64,000 bases of DNA, taken from the NCBI GenBank assembly GCA_900544625.1, contig UQVR01000002.1, positions 10,639-74,638 of the forward strand, read 5' to 3'. This DNA comes from an uncultured Mycoplasmatota bacterium. Lineage in GTDB: Bacteria > Bacillota_I > Bacilli_A > RF39 > UBA660. The position numbers and the translations under genes are program-made. Position 1 is the stretch's first letter. Every line of letters begins with the position of its first letter. The notes under the pieces are model-generated. The model had not been told where the DNA came from. It made no database searches and worked only from the letters and a program-made list of their open reading frames with translations. This document shows positions 37,145-59,355 of this stretch, piece by piece.

Positions 37145-38660
37145 TCCTATTAAATAGTATTTCCGGTTTATTTAAAGTAATTCCACACTCTAAATTACCA
37201 AATTCATTAATACTTTCAATACTTCTTTCATTTGTATTAAGTTCATTTAATATTTTTTCACTTGTTACATTAATAAACGGTTCAAGAAGTATTGCACATA
37301 CTCTAATACTTTCTAAAATATTATATAAAACAGTTTTTAATCTATCTTGCTTTGCTTCATCTTTAGCAAGTATCCATGGAGTCGTTTCATCGATATATTT
37401 ATTACATCTTTTTAATACTTCAAATATTTCTTCTAAAGCCTCATTAACTTTTAAACCATCCATTTTTTCATCGACTTTTATCTTTAAGTTTGTAACGGCA
37501 TCAATTAAGTCATTATCTATCTCTTCATTTACTTTTGGATTTTCTACCACCCCATCAAAGTATTTGTGACTCATACTTATAGTTCTATTAACTAAATTTC
37601 CTAAATTATTTACTAAATCTGCATTTGTTCTATTAATTAATGCTTCTTCAGAAAAATTACCATCACTACCAAAAGATACTTCTCTTAGTGCAAAATATCT
37701 AACTGCATCAACACCATAAGCATTAATATATTCTCTTGGATCTTTGTAATTTCCTAATGATTTAGAAATTTTTCCACCATTTATAATTAACCATCCATGT
37801 CCAAACACTTGGTGAGGTATTTCAATTCCTAAAGCCATAAGAAGTGCTGGCCAAATAATTGCATGGAACCTTGTAATTTCTTTACCTACTAAATGTAAGT
37901 CAGCTGGCCAATATTTTTTAAATAATGGTGCATTTTCATCTGGATATCCTAAAGATGTAATATAGTTTGATAATGCATCAATCCATACATAAATTACATG
38001 TTTTGGGTCAAAATCTACAGGAATTCCCCATTTAACCGAAGTTCTTGATACACATAAATCTTCAAGACCAGGTTTAATGAAATTATTTACTAGTTCATTT
38101 TTTCTTGAAACTGGTAAAATAAATTCCGGATTCTTATCATATAATTCAACTAATTTATCTTGATATTTAGATAATCTAAAAAAGTATGCTTCTTCAGTAA
38201 CATTTTTAACCTCGCGACCGCAATCTGGACATTTACCATCAACAAGTTGAGTTGCTGTCCAAAATGATTCACAAGGAACACAATATAGTCCTTCATAAGA
38301 CCCCTTATAAATATCCCCTTGGTCATATAATTTTCTAAATATTTTTTGAACAGCTTTAACATGTGATTCGTCAGTAGTTCTAATAAAATAATCATATGAA
38401 ATGTTTAAACTTTTCCATAAATTTTTAGCATTTTCGATTATAACATCAACATATTCTTTTGGCGTTACACCAGCATCCTTAGCTTTTTGTTCAATTTTAG
38501 CTCCATGTTCATCAGTTCCAGTTTGGAAAAACACATCGTATCCATTTAATCTTTTATATCTTGCAATAGCATCTGCAATAATAGTTGTATAACAATGTCC
38601 AATATGAAAATCAGCACTTGGATAATATATTGGTGTTGTTATGTAATATTTTTTATTCAT
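37128..38660 (-). CDS. metG: Methionine--tRNA ligase (short form, no C-terminal tRNA-binding domain)
   Basis: HIGH motif (ADFHIGHCY), KISKS (KMSKS-type), CPDCG zinc knuckle. Confidence 0.95.
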   Translation of the reverse strand: MNKKYYITTPIYYPSADFHIGHCYTTIIADAIARYKRLNGYDVFFQTGTDEHGAKIEQKAKDAGVTPKEYVDVIIENAKNLWKSLNISYDYFIRTTDESHVKAVQKIFRKLYDQGDIYKGSYEGLYCVPCESFWTATQLVDGKCPDCGREVKNVTEEAYFFRLSKYQDKLVELYDKNPEFILPVSRKNELVNNFIKPGLEDLCVSRTSVKWGIPVDFDPKHVIYVWIDALSNYITSLGYPDENAPLFKKYWPADLHLVGKEITRFHAIIWPALLMALGIEIPHQVFGHGWLIINGGKISKSLGNYKDPREYINAYGVDAVRYFALREVSFGSDGNFSEEALINRTNADLVNNLGNLVNRTISMSHKYFDGVVENPKVNEEIDNDLIDAVTNLKIKVDEKMDGLKVNEALEEIFEVLKRCNKYIDETTPWILAKDEAKQDRLKTVLYNILESIRVCAILLEPFINVTSEKILNELNTNERSIESINEFGNLECGITLNKPEILFNRIEINE

Positions 38661-39150
38661 TTTCTCTTCCTTCTTTCTTTTTATTTGTGCTACCTATACC
38701 ACCAGTTCTAAGTGTTTTAACATTATCATCATCAGTTGTTAAAAATTTAACGAATATCCCTTGAGCATAAGCATCACCCTTATTTATTATATATTCTTTA
38801 TCACCATGATTTTGTAAACATACCCACATATGGCCTTCATTATCACGATTATTATAATAATCACTTTCAATAATACCTACTTGATTAGTAAGCCTAACAT
38901 TATATTTGAAACCCACACTACTTCTTACCACGATCATAAGCATTTCATCACTTTCAAAAGTAGCCTTATAGCCAGTTGGTATCTTCACAATCTCATTAGG
39001 TTTAATAACATAATCTTTTATGGCAAAAAAATCATAACCTGCACTACATTTCGTCCCTCTTAAAGGGAGCATATAATCATCATACAAAGTTTTATTATCT
39101 CCAAAAACTTTAACAAATTCAGGATAACTTATTTTTTCAAACTTTCTCAT
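38653..39150 (-). CDS. dut: dUTP diphosphatase (trimeric dUTPase family)
   Basis: GTKCSAGYDF, VRSS, GIIESDYY, RTGGIGST motifs. Start set at MRKFEK (39150) after RBS ggagga, because the tracked N-terminal extension overlaps the T-box. 8-nt overlap with the metG start. Confidence 0.85.
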   Translation of the reverse strand: MRKFEKISYPEFVKVFGDNKTLYDDYMLPLRGTKCSAGYDFFAIKDYVIKPNEIVKIPTGYKATFESDEMLMIVVRSSVGFKYNVRLTNQVGIIESDYYNNRDNEGHMWVCLQNHGDKEYIINKGDAYAQGIFVKFLTTDDDNVKTLRTGGIGSTNKKKEGRENE

Positions 39151-39162
39151 ATTTCCTCCAAC

Positions 39163-39375
39163 AAAAAAATCATAAACTAAGGACGAGTATAACCCGCGGT
39201 ACCACCTTAATTCATGATTTATCATGCAACTTAAAAATTTATAACGTAATTACCCGATCTTAACTCCAGAGCCATATTCGAATATCTTCATTTTTTCTTT
39301 TCCACCAACCAAGAAATCTCTATGAAACGAATGATACCTACTCTTTCCTTCCTCGCTAAACTAAACATAGTTTAC
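39163..39375 (-). ncRNA. T-box leader (probable Met specifier) controlling dut-metG
   Basis: The - strand carries AGAGA...TGGTTGGTGGAA (stem I motifs) and candidate AUG-A specifiers. The T-box sequence AATTAAGGTGGTACCGCG follows, then a long imperfect helix and T7 immediately before the dut RBS. Confidence 0.8.
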
Positions 39376-49229: not shown

Positions 49230-49311
49230 AAAAAAAAGTGCACACAAACATAGGCTGATGTGGCTGCTATTTTCCAATCCTGACCAAGTTACAGCATATT
49301 TGTTGCACGAG
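49230..49311 (-). ncRNA. ffs: Signal recognition particle RNA, minimal (helix 8 only) form
   Basis: - strand GTGCAACAAATATGCTGTAACTTGGTCAGGATTGGAAAATAGCAGCCACATCAGCCTATGTTTGTGTGCAC + U8. It contains GGUCAGG..GGAA tetraloop..AGCAGCC of SRP domain IV. The closing helix pairs end to end. Confidence 0.85.
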
Positions 49312-49314
49312 TAA

Positions 49315-49343
49315 ATCGTATCAAATATAAAGAAACATGTCAA
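49315..49343 (-). promoter_or_regulatory. Promoter of the SRP RNA
   Basis: - strand TTGACA (49343-49338), 17-nt spacer, TACGAT (49320-49315). The predicted start is a few nt before the closing helix. Confidence 0.55.
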
Positions 49344-49400
49344 TACTTTTTATTACATATATTCAAATTATATTTTTATATATTGTTTTAAATAATTTTG

Positions 49401-49409
49401 TGTTGATAA
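49401..49409 (-). promoter_or_regulatory. DnaA box variant TTATCAACA
   Basis: + strand tgttgataa. The same 9-mer is used repeatedly at oriC in this window. Confidence 0.5.
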
Positions 49410-49522
49410 CTTAAAATTGTTTATTATAAATATGATAAATTTTGGCTAATATATGCCTTAAAATAACAATAGGCAAAATAAAGTATAATTAAAATTTGCT
49501 AATTTTTATAAAAAACTTAAAT

Positions 49523-49538
49523 TATTTCCCGGGAAATA
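49523..49538. promoter_or_regulatory. Noc-binding site (NBS) palindrome, perfect
   Basis: TATTTCCCGGGAAATA. The palindrome extends to 20 bp (49521-49540). It contains the Bacillus NBS consensus ATTTCCCGGGAAAT. Confidence 0.7.
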
Positions 49539-49669
49539 ATTATTTTAAAAACTTTAAATTTTTCTTCTTTTCTTTTTATATTAAAAAAGTTCTTAATTCC
49601 TTTTATTACCTAGTACTTTTACAAAAAAATACATTATATATTTTTAATTAATATATTATGTTAACTAAA

Positions 49670-49685
49670 TATTTCCCGGGAAATA
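49670..49685. promoter_or_regulatory. Noc-binding site (NBS) palindrome, perfect
   Basis: TATTTCCCGGGAAATA. The palindrome extends to 20 bp (49668-49687). It lies 147 bp from the first copy. Confidence 0.7.
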
Positions 49686-49752
49686 TTACTTTTAAGATTT
49701 CATCAACATTTTACTCATTATTTGCAATGTTGCAAACGTATGTACGTCATAA

Positions 49753-49768
49753 TGTTTCACGTGAAACT
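49753..49768. promoter_or_regulatory. parS site 1 (15/16)
   Basis: TGTTTCACGTGAAACT versus the Firmicute parS consensus TGTTNCACGTGAAACA. Confidence 0.8.
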
Positions 49769-49868
49769 AAAATATAAAATTATATTTCATTTGTAAACGT
49801 ATAATTATTTTTTATTTACTAATTATTAACTATAAATAATTTCATATTCACATTTTATTAACATCAAT

Positions 49869-49884
49869 AGTTTCACGTGAAACA
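49869..49884. promoter_or_regulatory. parS site 2 (15/16)
   Basis: AGTTTCACGTGAAACA. TTATTAACA lies 5 nt upstream (49855-49863). Confidence 0.8.
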
Positions 49885-49997
49885 ATAAGCCTAATTTTTT
49901 TTATAATAATATAAATATAATATTTAATTAACAAATTAGAAACACAAAATTAAATATTTAATTGAAAAACATAACCTTTCAACAACTTATCAACATA

Positions 49998-50013
49998 TGT
50001 TTCACGTGAAACA
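49998..50013. promoter_or_regulatory. parS site 3 (16/16)
   Basis: TGTTTCACGTGAAACA. DnaA box TTATCAACA lies 2 nt upstream (49987-49995). Confidence 0.85.
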
Positions 50014-50129
50014 TAACAATATTGAGGTATTAAACATAAAAATAACAACAAAATTGAAATAATATTAATTTATAGTTGAATATTAATATTTATTTCATAT
50101 AAATAATATCAACAAGTTATCAACACAAA

Positions 50130-50145
50130 TGTTTCACGTGAAACA
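50130..50145. promoter_or_regulatory. parS site 4 (16/16)
   Basis: TGTTTCACGTGAAACA. TTATCAACA lies 4 nt upstream (50117-50125) and ATATCAACA lies at 50106-50114. Confidence 0.85.
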
Positions 50146-50347
50146 CAAAAGTAAATTATGGTTATGTATGAAATTTCTTAATTGAAATAAATAAAAATCA
50201 AATTAAGATAAATATAATATACAAAATTGTGTTTGAATACAAAAAAATATGATCATGTATTAAACATTGATTCAATTCCTTTTAAAAAAATATAATATCA
50301 TAAATTAATAATATTATTATAGTTGCAAATGAAAACTTATTAACATA

Positions 50348-50363
50348 TGTTTCACGTGAAACA
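50348..50363. promoter_or_regulatory. parS site 5 (16/16)
   Basis: TGTTTCACGTGAAACA. TTATTAACA lies 2 nt upstream (50337-50345). Confidence 0.85.
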
Positions 50364-50455
50364 AATAATATTATAAAAAGATATAATACTAAACAAAATA
50401 AATTAAATTTGATTTGATAATAATTAATAATTACATATACTCTATGTATAAAAAA

Positions 50456-50471
50456 AGTTTCACGTGAAACA
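50456..50471. promoter_or_regulatory. parS site 6 (15/16)
   Basis: AGTTTCACGTGAAACA. Confidence 0.8.
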
Positions 50472-50586
50472 ATTTTTTTTAAAATTAATTAATATACTAA
50501 TAATTATTGAATCTGCATATTTAAAAATAATTATTAAAATTTAACAATATACAAAGTATATACATAAGATAATTACTAAAAGAGAC

Positions 50587-53094
50587 TTATTCAGTCTCTT
50601 TTTCCTCGACTATAGCGCTTTCATTAGATACATTTTCACTCAAAGTGTTTAGTTCTTCTTCTGTAGATTCACTAACTTCTTCTTTTTCAACTAAACTTAT
50701 GGTTGATACTTTTTGATTATCCTTTAAGTTAATAAGTCTTAAACCTTGAGTTACACGTCCTAATAATGATATTTGATCTAAAGGCATTCTCATTGTCATA
50801 CCTGAATTAGTCATTATAACTAGTTCTTGATTATCTTGAACAATTTTAACACTAACTAAACTTCCGTTTTTATCAGTTATATTCATGGCTTTTACACCTT
50901 TTGATCCTCTTCTTGTTTGACGATATTCACTTACTTTAGTTTGCTTACCATAACCTTTTTCTGTTACTAATAAAATTGTATCATCTTCTTTAACAATTTC
51001 AGAACAAATACATTTACTTCCATCCAATGAAATCCCTCTGACACCTGAAGCTGTTCTACCCATAACTCTTATTTCATCTTCATTAAATTTAACCATTCTA
51101 CCGCTATCGCTACCTAGAAGTACTAAATCATTACCTGTTGTTTTTTTAACATCAATTAATTTATCATTTTCTCTTAAAGAAATACAAATCTTACCACTAT
51201 TTCTAATATTAGAAAATTCACTAATTAATGTTTTCTTAACAACTCCACCTTCTGTAGCAAATAATAAATATTTACATTCTTCTTCACGATTAATTTCAAT
51301 AATAGCATTAACTCTTTCATCTTTTTCCACTTGAAGTAAGTTAACAATTGGAATTCCTTTAGACTGACGAGAAAATTCTGGAATTTCGTAACCTTTAAGT
51401 CTATATACCTTACCTTTATCAGTAAAGAATAAAATATAATCATGTGTTGATAAGTTAATCATGTGTTCTACAAAATCTTCATCATTCGTAGTCATTCCCT
51501 TGATTCCAACACCACCACGGTTTTGTGATTTAAAAGTGTCTGACGTAGTTCTCTTAATATAACCCTTGTTAGTAAGTACTACCAAGATATTTTCTTCTGG
51601 TATTAAAGATTCATCTTCAATATAATCAACTGCTGTCATATCAATCTTAGTACGTCTTTCATCACCATATTTATTTTTAATTTCAGTCATTTCATCTTTA
51701 ATGATACCTAATACCTTATTATTATCCGCTAAAATGCCACGTAAACGTTCAATTTCGATTCTGAGTGCATTTAGTTCATCTTCAATTTTTTCACGTTCTA
51801 GACCCGTTAAACGACGTAATTTCATTTCTAGAATATTATCAGTTTGAGCTTCAGTTAATCCAAAACGTTCCATTAACTTGGATTTAGCTTCTCCATCAGC
51901 TTTTGATTCTTTAATAATCTTAATAACTTCATCAATATTATCAAATACAATTTGATAACCTTCTAAGATATGCACTCTTTTTTCTGCTTTATCTAATTCA
52001 AATTGAGTTCTTCTAATAATAATTTCTTGTTGATAATCTACATATTTACTAATTATATCTTTCAAACCTAGTGTTCTTGGAACCCCTTTATCAAGCATTA
52101 AGAAAATAATACCAAAAGTTGTTTGAAAAGCAGTATGTTTATACAAATTATTTAAAACTACCTGAGGATTTGCATCCTTTTTTAAAGTAATAGTTATTTT
52201 AATACCATCTTTTAAATCAGTGTGATAATCAGTAATACATTCAAGTACTTTATTATGTACTAAATCTGCTACTTTTTGTTTTAAATCAAGGGTATTAACA
52301 CCATAAGGAACTTCTTCGATAACAATATAATGTCTTCCATTTTTTTCTTCAATTGTTGCTTTACTTCTAATAGTAATTGATCCTCTACCAGTTTCATACG
52401 CTTTTTTAATTCCAGAATTACCTAAAATAATACCACCAGTTGGAAAATCAGGCCCTTTAACATGTTGCATTAATTCTTCCGTAGTAATTTCAGGATTATC
52501 TATATATGCAATACAACCATCAATAACTTCACCTAAATTATGTGGTGGAATATTTGTTGCCATACCAACAGCAATACCCATTGTTCCATTAACTAAAATA
52601 TTTGGAAATCTTGAGGGTAAAACTTCAGGTTCTTCAGTTGAATCATCATAATTTGGTACAAAATTAACCGTATTTTTATTGATATCTCTTAAAAGTTCCA
52701 TAGATATCTTAGCAAGTTTACTTTCAGTATAACGATAAGCGGCTGCTCTTGGATATTCAATATTACCAAAGTTACCATGTCCATCAACAAGTAAATAACG
52801 ATAATTAAAGTCTTGGGCCATTCTTACCATAGCCTCATAAATTGATGAATCTCCATGAGGATGATATTTCCCCATAACGTCCCCAACTATCGTCGCACTC
52901 TTACGATGTTTTTTATCTGGTGTTAATCCATTTTCTAACATATCATAAATAATTCTTCTATGAACTGGCTTTAAACCATCTCTTAAATCTGGTAAAGCTC
53001 TGGAAATAATAACACTCATTGAATATTCAATAAAAGAAGATTCAATTTCACTTACTATATTATTTTCTTCTAGTCTATCTCTACTATGATCCAT
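50587..53094 (-). CDS. gyrA: DNA gyrase subunit A
   Basis: [16 protein letters not shown], active-site region AAYRYTE, C-terminal beta-pinwheel repeats, acidic tail. Confidence 0.97.
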
Positions 53095-56237: not shown

Positions 56238-56666
56238 TTATCCTCGTGTTAAATACACTAACCACAACCTACTACATTTTAAAAGTTGATTATTAAACTT
56301 CGTAGGGGTTATACTAAAGCATTTTTTTTCACCATTTTTAAACAAAACAACAATACCATTCTGACTCTTTTCATAGTTTTGCACTTTATTAAAATTAAGC
56401 CAATAATAGCTTTTTTCTTCTTTTATTGGAAAAAAGATTATATTATTCTTTTCACTTATCATAATTGGTAACTTATAACAACCACCAAGAATATTTTTAC
56501 TTCCCATAATTCTTCCCTTCAAAGAACTACCATAATAAATACAACTAAAATTTAATATAGAATTTAATAAATTACCCCCAAATTTTAATTGATTATCTTC
56601 TTCATGAACAATAGTATTTTCGCCATTAAATTCCATAAAAAGAGTATTATTATTAATTTTAAACAT
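56238..56666 (-). CDS. comK: ComK-family transcription factor homologue
   Basis: SCIYYGSSLKGR..G......YKLPIMISEKNNIIFFP...W.......V.F.NG....I....F.NQ aligns by eye with the Bacillus ComK core (SCRFFGSSYAGR...HKPPIMVDPSNQIFLFP). Start set at MFKINNN after RBS aaggag. Confidence 0.75.
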   Translation of the reverse strand: MFKINNNTLFMEFNGENTIVHEEDNQLKFGGNLLNSILNFSCIYYGSSLKGRIMGSKNILGGCYKLPIMISEKNNIIFFPIKEEKSYYWLNFNKVQNYEKSQNGIVVLFKNGEKKCFSITPTKFNNQLLKCSRLWLVYLTRG

Positions 56667-56723
56667 TTTAATTCTCCTTTCTTGATTTGCTATAATAGCA
56701 AAACTTTTATAAAAAATTTGTCG

Positions 56724-56760
56724 AAAAAAAAAGAACAAGTTAATATTTTGTTCATTTTTT
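56724..56760 (-). terminator. Rho-independent terminator after dnaN
   Basis: gaacaa/ttgttc stem flanked by A9 and T-runs. Confidence 0.65.
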
Positions 56761-58011: not shown

Positions 58012-59355
58012 TTATTGTAACTTCATTTTTATTTCTTTCAACACATTATTTAAATTCGGATTAGTTTCTAATTCTTCTTTTATCTTATCACATGCTGTTG
58101 ATACTGTAGAATGATCTCTACCCCCGAATTCAAGTCCTATTTTCTGTAAATTTTCATCTGTTTCAACTCTACATAAGTACATTGCTATATGTCTAGGTTT
58201 TACTACTGTATTAGTTCTTCGTTTACTTTTTAAATCATCTACCGATATTTTAAAATATTCTGCAACAGCATTTTGGATAGAACCAATCGAATTGTTGATA
58301 AATATGTTAGTATTAACATAATCATTTAATGCTTCGTTAGCAAAATCCAAAGTAATTTTATCAGGAACCATCATTGCTGTGTAAGCTAGCAACCTGTTTA
58401 TAGTTCCTTCAATGTGTCTAACATCATTAACACATGAATTAGCAATATATTCTATAACATCATTAGTTAATTTATCTTCAATACTGGTATTTTTTATCTT
58501 TGATCTTATAATATCACATCTTAGATTAAAGTCTGGAGGGAATATATCAACAGGAAGTCCCCACATAAACCTACTTCTAAGTCTTTCTTCGATTTTCTTT
58601 AAGTCATCCGGACTCTTATCACTACTAATAATTATTTGTTTATTTGCTTGATGCAAAGCATTAAATGTATGAAAGAATTCTTGTTGCGTTTTTTCTGCTT
58701 CAACTAAAAATTGAATATCATCTATAATTAATACATCTACATTACGATATTTATCTTTAAAATCATTAGCATATCCCATTTTATTATTACTTGTAGCAAT
58801 ACCAGTAAATTCATCTCTAAATTCATTACTTGTTGTATATAATACCTTTAAATTAGAATGATCTTTAATATAATTACCAATTGCTTGCATTAAATGTGTT
58901 TTCCCTATTCCACTTCGTCCATATATAAATAACGGATTGTGGATAGTTCCCGGAGCTTCCGCAACTGCTCTGGCTGCAACAAATGCAAGTCTATTTGAAT
59001 TACCTACTACATAGTTATCAAAAGTAAATTTTGGATTTAAATTTGTATTCCATTCTATATCTTTTTCAACAGTTTCTTCAGGAACAATAGGTTCAACAAA
59101 GTTTTCAACTTCTTCTTCAGTAATATAATTAAATGTATAATTTATACCAGTTAAAGCAAAAAATGTATTACTTATAAGATCTTTATATGTTTCTCCAAGC
59201 ATTTTTTTAGTTATTTGTAATCCAACCTTTATTGTTACTACATTGTTAACAATCGATAATAGTTCAAGTTTTGAAAACCAAATATTATAAATTGTATCGC
59301 TAACTTGATTCTGAATATCTTTTAAAAAATGTGAAAAAAGCTCATCAGTTTTCAA
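58012..59355 (-). CDS. dnaA: Chromosomal replication initiator protein DnaA
   Basis: Walker A GRSGIGKTHL, IIDDIQFL, box VII, and the C-terminal DNA-binding helix (GGRDHSTV). Confidence 0.97.
   Translation of the reverse strand: MKTDELFSHFLKDIQNQVSDTIYNIWFSKLELLSIVNNVVTIKVGLQITKKMLGETYKDLISNTFFALTGINYTFNYITEEEVENFVEPIVPEETVEKDIEWNTNLNPKFTFDNYVVGNSNRLAFVAARAVAEAPGTIHNPLFIYGRSGIGKTHLMQAIGNYIKDHSNLKVLYTTSNEFRDEFTGIATSNNKMGYANDFKDKYRNVDVLIIDDIQFLVEAEKTQQEFFHTFNALHQANKQIIISSDKSPDDLKKIEERLRSRFMWGLPVDIFPPDFNLRCDIIRSKIKNTSIEDKLTNDVIEYIANSCVNDVRHIEGTINRLLAYTAMMVPDKITLDFANEALNDYVNTNIFINNSIGSIQNAVAEYFKISVDDLKSKRRTNTVVKPRHIAMYLCRVETDENLQKIGLEFGGRDHSTVSTACDKIKEELETNPNLNNVLKEIKMKLQ

Follow-up and report, generated by a model that had tools for sequence, protein, structure and literature searches.

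Candidate Noc-binding sites at the edge of an origin-proximal parS array in an uncultured lineage of low-GC Bacilli

Gene-free island and its palindromes

The window analysed here is a stretch of 64,000 nucleotides from an uncultured Mycoplasmatota bacterium. The dnaA gene (58012-59355, minus strand) marks oriC and lies ~9.7 kb from the pair of palindromes described below; the GC skew changes sign at ~59-60 kb, just beyond dnaA. Together, the position of dnaA and the skew switch place the pair ~10 kb from oriC. The origin operon includes a ComK-family gene (56238-56738, minus strand; PF06338, E = 1.8e-21), which is flanked by dnaN and recF and is kept in related loci. The window also contains a T-box leader (RF00230, 104.5 bits; 39176-39362, minus strand) upstream of the gene at 38653-39225.

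Between the stop codon and terminator hairpin of gyrA and the promoter of a small SRP RNA gene is a non-coding island of 1,274 bp (49313-50586), which contains two types of palindromic site. The 3' end of gyrA (50587-53094, minus strand) abuts the parS side of the island. The SRP RNA gene (49232-49312, minus strand; 54.1 bits against a gathering score of 40) is transcribed away from the island and has a promoter-like element, TTGACA-17-TGnTACGAT, at 49343-49315. ORFs in the island all fall short of 60 aa, and the four that are present (33-51 aa) are spurious. The sole Rfam match is to the SRP RNA that borders the island; an overlooked gene or RNA is ruled out by these searches. A preliminary description of this DNA had placed both site types in one gene-free island near the origin, and the island bears this out.

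Six parS sites (49753-49768, 49869-49884, 49998-50013, 50130-50145, 50348-50363 and 50456-50471) form an array that spans 49753-50471. Three match the consensus TGTTTCACGTGAAACA perfectly and three have one mismatch; six matches were reached in none of 100 shuffles. A DnaA-box-like sequence, TTATCAACA or TTATTAACA, precedes four of the six sites within a 30-nt repeat unit (49855-50363). As a general companion of parS the TTATCAACA box was rejected: in relatives it is found within 25 bp of only 60 of 224 parS sites. A conserved copy of TTATCAACA (49401-49409, minus strand) and a conserved hairpin-like sequence, AAGGCATATATTAGCCAAAA (49440-49459, minus strand), lie between the second type of site and the SRP RNA promoter; the latter sequence is common to loci L007, L031 and L014.

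The second type of site is TATTTCCCGGGAAATA, the established 16-bp Noc-binding site, or NBS (PMC7383237). Two exact copies of this palindrome are present, at 49523-49538 and 49670-49685, with no further match in the window at up to three mismatches. The copies are 147 bp apart, and the centre of copy 2 is 83 bp from that of the first parS-like site (49753-49768). The preliminary description had given the same coordinates and spacings and had equated the core with the established B. subtilis Noc-binding sequence; both were reproduced, the latter by identity to the NBS of PMC7383237. It had also set each copy in a perfect palindrome of 20 bp. This is correct for copy 2 (49668-49687); copy 1, which is more distant from the parS array, is the core of a perfect palindrome of 22 bp (49520-49541). 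A conserved element, ATTATGTTAAC (GTTAACATAAT on the other strand; 49655-49665), directly adjoins copy 2 in the alignment and accompanies both NBS copies in L009 and L031.

At 26% GC, a sequence with ten A/T and six G/C positions is expected ~1.5e-5 times per 64 kb by our own arithmetic. The hexamer CCCGGG occurs three times in the window against 0.27 expected. Aligned orthologous NBS copies are invariant across related species, while their flanks are unalignable. An origin of the pair by chance or low complexity is ruled out by the shuffles, the base-composition arithmetic and this cross-species conservation. Nor is the background density of NBS high, as the preliminary description had allowed it might be: the pair accounts for every match in the window, and ~92 kb around oriC in this species likewise contain no other NBS at up to three mismatches. 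At the level of sequence, the assignment of the two palindromes as NBS, i.e. as predicted binding sites for a Noc-like relative of ParB, is well supported.

Noc-type gene downstream of rsmG

Species-representative genomes were scanned with DnaA, which gave 80 loci of ~20 kb each (1.42 Mb) from related uncultured low-GC Bacilli. DnaA identity spans 58-100% in this set, whose records bear the labels Bacilli bacterium, Firmicutes bacterium CAG:460, Mycoplasma sp. CAG:472, Tenericutes and Candidatus Onthocola. Since the window stops short of the usual position of noc, contigs with the Jag protein of the window were examined for the region beyond it.

The gene order beyond the window is jag, a strain-variable insert, mnmE, mnmG, rsmG and one gene with ParB_N and HTH_ParB domains. 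This Noc-type gene encodes 382 aa and directly follows mnmE-mnmG-rsmG (L001:17509-18657, equivalent to ~70344-71492 in window coordinates). It is therefore outside the window, ~6 kb past its end, and ~21 kb from the NBS pair, across oriC. The order mnmE-mnmG-rsmG-gene is found in all loci covering the region. On the 3' side are a convergent small gene and then a PBP gene; soj and spo0J are absent after the Noc-type gene. About 9 kb past the noc-like gene is a SpoIIR gene (L087:20521-21024), which, with the PBP genes, points to an organism that has a wall and may sporulate even though its genome is small and low in GC. The insert between jag and mnmE (L001:10799-13467, compared with L002:10766-14886 and L087:2599-5983) contains a divergent pair of HTH_3 genes and a protein of 638-839 aa, mostly without Pfam matches; some strains have an extra AAA_14/DUF4143 gene here.

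The 382-aa protein has the ParB/Noc fold, with matches to Pfam PF02195 and PF17762 and to PDB Noc chains (E = 4.5e-57). Its best PDB matches are Noc of Geobacillus (197 bits) and B. subtilis (182 bits), followed by Spo0J (173 bits). The best NCBIfam family is nucleoid_noc (TIGR04285) at 273.7 bits, which is below the curated cutoff of 315. The N-terminal domain is 48% identical to both Spo0J and Noc. The family to which the protein belongs, termed Noc-like here, comprises at least 150 clusters at 50% identity.

At the four specificity positions (residues 173, 179, 184 and 201 in Caulobacter ParB numbering), the protein has Q-K-T-R, compared with Q-K-K-R in Noc and R-H-T-G in Spo0J. Q173 reads adenine 1 and R201 reads cytosine 6 of the NBS, and a single lysine, at either 179 or 184, suffices to permit NBS binding (PMC7383237). 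The NBS-specifying residues (Q173, K179 and/or K184, R201) are retained by at least 129 of the 150 representatives of the family. From Q-K-T-R at these positions, the 382-aa protein is predicted to prefer NBS. It does not have the arginine at 173 and small residue at 201 of a canonical chromosomal ParB, and its N-terminus (MNNKEMEKTIL) lacks the ParA-interacting motif LG(R/K)GL. Position 171, a conserved DNA contact which is lysine in ParB and Noc, is leucine, valine or isoleucine in the Noc-like family; consequently, NBS specificity may not transfer exactly.

The CTP-binding boxes GERRFK and ENIQRK are present, with the equivalents of Noc R89 (GERR) and N121 (ENLQR), which have CTP-binding roles (PMC8429893); R66/R67 and N99 are invariant among the aligned sequences. 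The preliminary description had proposed that a Noc paralogue acts at this locus, a proposal that would fail if the genome had no Noc homologue. A Noc-type ParB paralogue with NBS-specifying residues is encoded next to rsmG.

The protein differs from Noc at its N-terminus. Box I (PNRFQPR) begins at residue 20, compared with residue 40 in B. subtilis Noc, and the 19 residues before it contain no amphipathic membrane-targeting helix (hydrophobic moment 0.24 for residues 1-11). The N-terminus is similarly short in 144 of the best 150 cluster representatives of the family, and the start codons agree with independent gene calls in ten of ten species. In Noc homologues, the N-terminal helix (approximately aa 1-15) is extremely conserved and is required for function (PMC4331003). 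Absence of this helix means that the 382-aa protein is not a textbook nucleoid-occlusion factor; the suggestion in the preliminary description of a nucleoid-occlusion hub, in the Bacillus sense, is thus unsupported.

AlphaFold2 gives a confident prediction for the N-terminal and DNA-binding region (pLDDT mostly 80-89, block means 69-89, over residues 11-200), followed by a disordered linker of ~130 aa (residues 205-324) and a small C-terminal domain. Most of the linker is variable. The exception is PNKFFNFLEDE, of the family form (M/I)PNKFFNFLED(E/S)xANM, at residues ~277-293, with the core KFFNFLED starting at residue 280. All 20 species inspected have this strikingly conserved, amphipathic motif, as do around half of the representatives. 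It is predicted to be helical, at low confidence, and has a hydrophobic moment of 0.52-0.64, compared with 0.43-0.51 for the Noc helix. The motif is similar to the F/K-rich membrane helices of Noc and SepF. It may be a relocated membrane-targeting or partner-binding helix, as far as can be judged from its sequence.

Distribution of the two site types in related species

A parS array of 2-19 copies is found downstream of gyrA in 60 of the 80 loci. At least one perfect NBS is present within 700 bp of the array in 31 of these 60 species. Across the 80 loci (1.42 Mb), 60 of 82 perfect NBS fall inside the 700-bp parS zones, although these account for only 8% of the total sequence; this corresponds to a density of 0.52/kb near parS versus 0.017/kb elsewhere, a 31-fold enrichment. 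NBS are located at one edge of the array in 23 species and at both edges in eight, and are occasionally interleaved with parS. Copy numbers near parS range from one to six and are independent among the 31 species. The 16-mers are invariant even though the flanks of the island fail to align between species with 85-100% identical DnaA, and the sequence logo extends to AAnTATTTCCCGGGAAATAnTT, ~22 bp. A control set of 120 other AT-rich metagenome ParB loci, among the matches listed, contains 33 parS and no NBS in 662 kb. Roughly half of the species that have an array lack NBS in the sampled 20 kb, despite encoding a protein with the Q-K-x-R residues (QKxR).

This recurrence and enrichment across related species indicate, at the sequence level, that the pairing of NBS and parS is a conserved and selected feature of a large uncultured lineage of gut Bacilli and not a coincidence. 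The flanking position of NBS could nevertheless merely reflect growth of parS arrays by internal duplication.

The arrays vary in form. L083 has 14 parS copies at an exact period of 40 bp (L083:18992-19530), and L032 has an array of 19 copies (L032:17522-19130). In L048 (L048:18737-19442), NBS and parS form composite pairs that are 23-25 bp apart centre-to-centre. Perfect NBS are also found at other positionally conserved, origin-proximal places: inside the mnmE coding sequence in six species (L019, L020, L022, L024, L026 and L028), between jag and mnmE (L069, L071, L076-L078, L080 and L086) and between dnaN and comK (L039, L044, L046, L048 and L063).

These other sites fit ordinary occlusion of the Bacillus type, with NBS scattered near the origin and no function of its own in their closeness to parS. 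Outside the islands there is one NBS per ~59 kb, similar to ~70 per 4.2 Mb in B. subtilis (PMC4331003), and known Noc sites are origin-biased (PMC5540599). However, within the origin-proximal DNA covered (92 kb of this species and 20 kb from each of 80 relatives), scattering does not account for a 31-fold enrichment beside parS in 31 species with independent copy numbers of one to six, for the lack of any other NBS at up to three mismatches in ~92 kb of this species, or for the zero count in 662 kb of other AT-rich ParB loci among the matches listed; in addition, the protein does not have the N-terminal membrane-targeting helix that occlusion requires (PMC4331003). Ordinary occlusion is accordingly an unlikely explanation of the pair.

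The recognition helix and the sites vary together. In a CAG:472-type sub-clade (L049, L052, L057, L058, L059 and L062; noc-like genes at ~0.1-3.4 kb of each locus), the recognition helix has been rewritten to GIPVSVLEAKLKLL, i.e. GIP(V/L/E)SVL(E/Q)(A/G/N)KLKLL, with loss of Q173, S172 and N178. These six species have no NBS at up to two mismatches, and a search for a substitute palindrome in the sub-clade found none. They keep 3-6 parS copies, nearly all perfect, and their proteins retain the CTPase boxes and the linker motif. Sister species of this sub-clade that have QKxR keep NBS or near-NBS, and orthologues outside the sub-clade keep Q-K-x-R. In some species parS is TGTTCCACGTGGAACA and the NBS is still TATTTCCCGGGAAATA. 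Both observations tie NBS to the QKxR helix and favour another protein as the reader of parS.

The same data bear on whether the palindromes are Noc sites at all, and not an operator for a regulator of SRP RNA, tadA or dnaX, a restriction-modification target (CCCGGG) or a product of chance. Their position 180-360 bp upstream of the SRP RNA promoter would suit an operator, and the core includes a SmaI/XmaI-type hexamer. However, the conserved sequence extends over 16-22 bp and matches exactly the NBS defined by experiment, and it is present or absent in step with the QKxR helix. In other clades it is found on the gyrA side of the array, and it also recurs inside the coding sequence of mnmE and in further intergenic stretches. 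Chance alone would give ~1e-5 per window. A role unconnected with Noc is highly improbable.

Readers of the two sites and comparison with known systems

The protein that binds parS was sought in several ways. Neither a canonical ParB nor a ParA was recovered by tblastn with Spo0J, Noc and Soj over the ~92 kb around oriC, and a family HMM run on all stop-to-stop ORFs found no second ParB near oriC. Pfam gene lists contain no ParB or ParA in the 10 kb past the noc-like gene or in the 9 kb to the left of the window. In each of the 80 loci that includes the rsmG region, the orthologue adjoining rsmG is the only ParB-family gene, and ParA is absent. A search of protein representatives for the ParB of this lineage returned only the Noc-like family among the best 150, and nothing on the presence of parB/spo0J in RF39/RFN20 was found in the supplement of PMC10868615.

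Metagenome contigs were also scanned at the DNA level for codon-specific GERRxRA, which gave at least 120 loci. Among the matches listed, no GERRxRA locus is demonstrably of this lineage; their DnaA and MnmG are 41-53% identical to those of the lineage. Tetranucleotide similarity is a misleading guide to lineage for these loci. The best-looking candidate was rejected as the ParB of Clostridium sp. CAG:433, an abundant low-GC gut organism in which parAB is located away from rsmG, beside ychF-rpsF-ssb-rpsR-rplI-dnaB. Canonical ParBs with a cysteine in the recognition region (..LTEGHC(K/R)..) occur in L100, L102, L107, L114, L120, L151, L166 and ~15 further metagenome loci. These are AT-rich human-gut contigs with the order rsmG-parA-parB and no noc; they belong to a different lineage, with DnaA ~41% identical.

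Since no canonical ParB or ParA is found in the ~92 kb around oriC, the parS binder is inferred and the picture of two clamps depends on this. It is most likely a canonical ParB encoded elsewhere in the genome. The competition between two clamps put forward as an option in the preliminary description would presuppose this separate ParB. A distant parB is plausible, given that clostridial-type QKxR proteins are encoded beside parA-parB and that CAG:433 has its parAB away from rsmG.

Alternatively, there may be no separate ParB. The QKxR protein would then nucleate on both parS and NBS, as a dual-specificity or transitional state between ParB and Noc, and the island would be a composite centromere. 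The single ParB-family gene and missing ParA in the 80 loci and the ~92 kb around oriC are in line with this, as are an N-terminal domain equally identical (48%) to Spo0J and Noc, the spacing of NBS and parS down to 23-25 bp centre-to-centre in L048, and the existence of laboratory variants with dual specificity (PMC7383237). The recognition residues point the other way: Q173 and R201 specify NBS, whereas R173 is always retained in parS-specific variants (PMC7383237). Moreover, B. subtilis Noc fails to load on parS (PMC8429893), the CAG:472-type clade rewrote its recognition helix yet kept 3-6 parS, parS shifted to TGTTCCACGTGGAACA in some species with NBS unchanged, and clostridial-type QKxR proteins coexist with canonical ParA-ParB. 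A single protein on both sites is quite unlikely. The corresponding evolutionary scenario, in which the QKxR protein is the sole ParB-family protein, parS and NBS form one centromere and the lineage preserves a living ParB-to-Noc intermediate with NBS born beside old parS, is doubtful to the same degree.

The two palindromes are probably functional NBS that serve as nucleation or loading sites for the 382-aa Noc-type ParB paralogue of this genome at the edge of the centromere, as judged from the sites and the residues predicted to read them. Dimers of the protein would recognise the NBS half-sites through the Gln/Lys/Arg helix, of which the residues are observed. By homology, CTP bound through the intact GERR and ENxQR boxes would lead to closure of the clamp. 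The clamp would then slide to neighbouring DNA and form a second ParB-family domain abutting the ParB-parS complex, ~10 kb from oriC. Any contact with the membrane or a partner would have to come from the linker motif PNKFFNFLEDE and the C-terminal domain. The likeliest output would be specific marking or tethering of the centromere/origin region; a possible secondary effect is that the ParB domain is bounded beside the SRP RNA, tadA and dnaX promoters. In a weaker form of the single-centromere scenario, likewise doubtful, a separate ParB is retained and Noc-type clamps loaded at the flanking NBS would keep its sliding within the gene-free island.

Noc and ParB serve as the textbook example of a duplicated DNA-binding protein that gains a new target and of the deployment of CTP-gated clamps. 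In the Noc-NBS system, tens of NBS are distributed chromosome-wide and are absent from the terminus; Noc is recruited to the membrane and Z-ring assembly is inhibited. Work on this nucleoid occlusion system in B. subtilis/S. aureus reportedly includes that of Wu in 2009. To our knowledge, in all experimental work Noc and ParB sites are spatially separate, with parS near the origin and NBS scattered.

The locus described here shares with the B. subtilis/S. aureus system an identical 16-bp site, a gene after rsmG (gidB), the Q/K/R specificity residues, intact CTP boxes and origin-proximal sites (PMC4331003, PMC7383237, PMC8429893, PMC5540599). Unlike Noc, the 382-aa protein has no N-terminal amphipathic helix, has a ~130-aa disordered linker with PNKFFNFLEDE, replaces K171 with L/V/I, is not followed by soj-spo0J and scores below the NCBIfam cutoff for Noc; the NBS are concentrated at the edges of dense parS arrays and are not merely scattered. 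Compared with Spo0J/ParB-parS, the superfamily and CTP-clamp architecture are the same, the 16-bp palindromes are likewise clustered near oriC, and the island is shared with canonical parS; in contrast, residues 173 and 201 are of the NBS type (Q173/R201 versus R173/G201), and there is no ParA-stimulating peptide and no ParA nearby.

The clostridial-type QKxR paralogues of noc-parA-parB operons (L109, L193 and L198) have the same QKxR helix and, in two of three (L109 and L198), a similarly short N-terminus without the Bacillus-type helix. However, they are ~265-310 aa in length, do not have the long linker and are encoded next to canonical ParA-ParB; no NBS was found in their sampled flanks.

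In the RacA-ram and RefZ-RBM systems, sites clustered near the origin or centromere mark this region for anchoring or division control. Together with RicO (S. aureus; bioRxiv 10.64898/2026.03.06.710092), RacA and RefZ of B. subtilis offer a functional analogy only; their families and site sequences are unrelated to the Noc-type protein and NBS.

The combination of NBS at the borders of dense parS arrays with a Noc-type clamp that has no N-terminal helix and carries a linker motif is, on the sequence comparisons made here, a variant new to the Noc/NBS system. Automated labels such as 'ParB/Spo0J' or 'nucleoid occlusion protein' on these MAG proteins conceal a distinct subfamily. The lineage would provide a natural system in which to ask whether ParB-family clamps of two kinds obstruct, intermix with or strengthen one another when their loading sites are tens of base pairs apart, what role a Noc-type protein has when it lacks the N-terminal helix, and whether NBS specificity first arose at the centromere.
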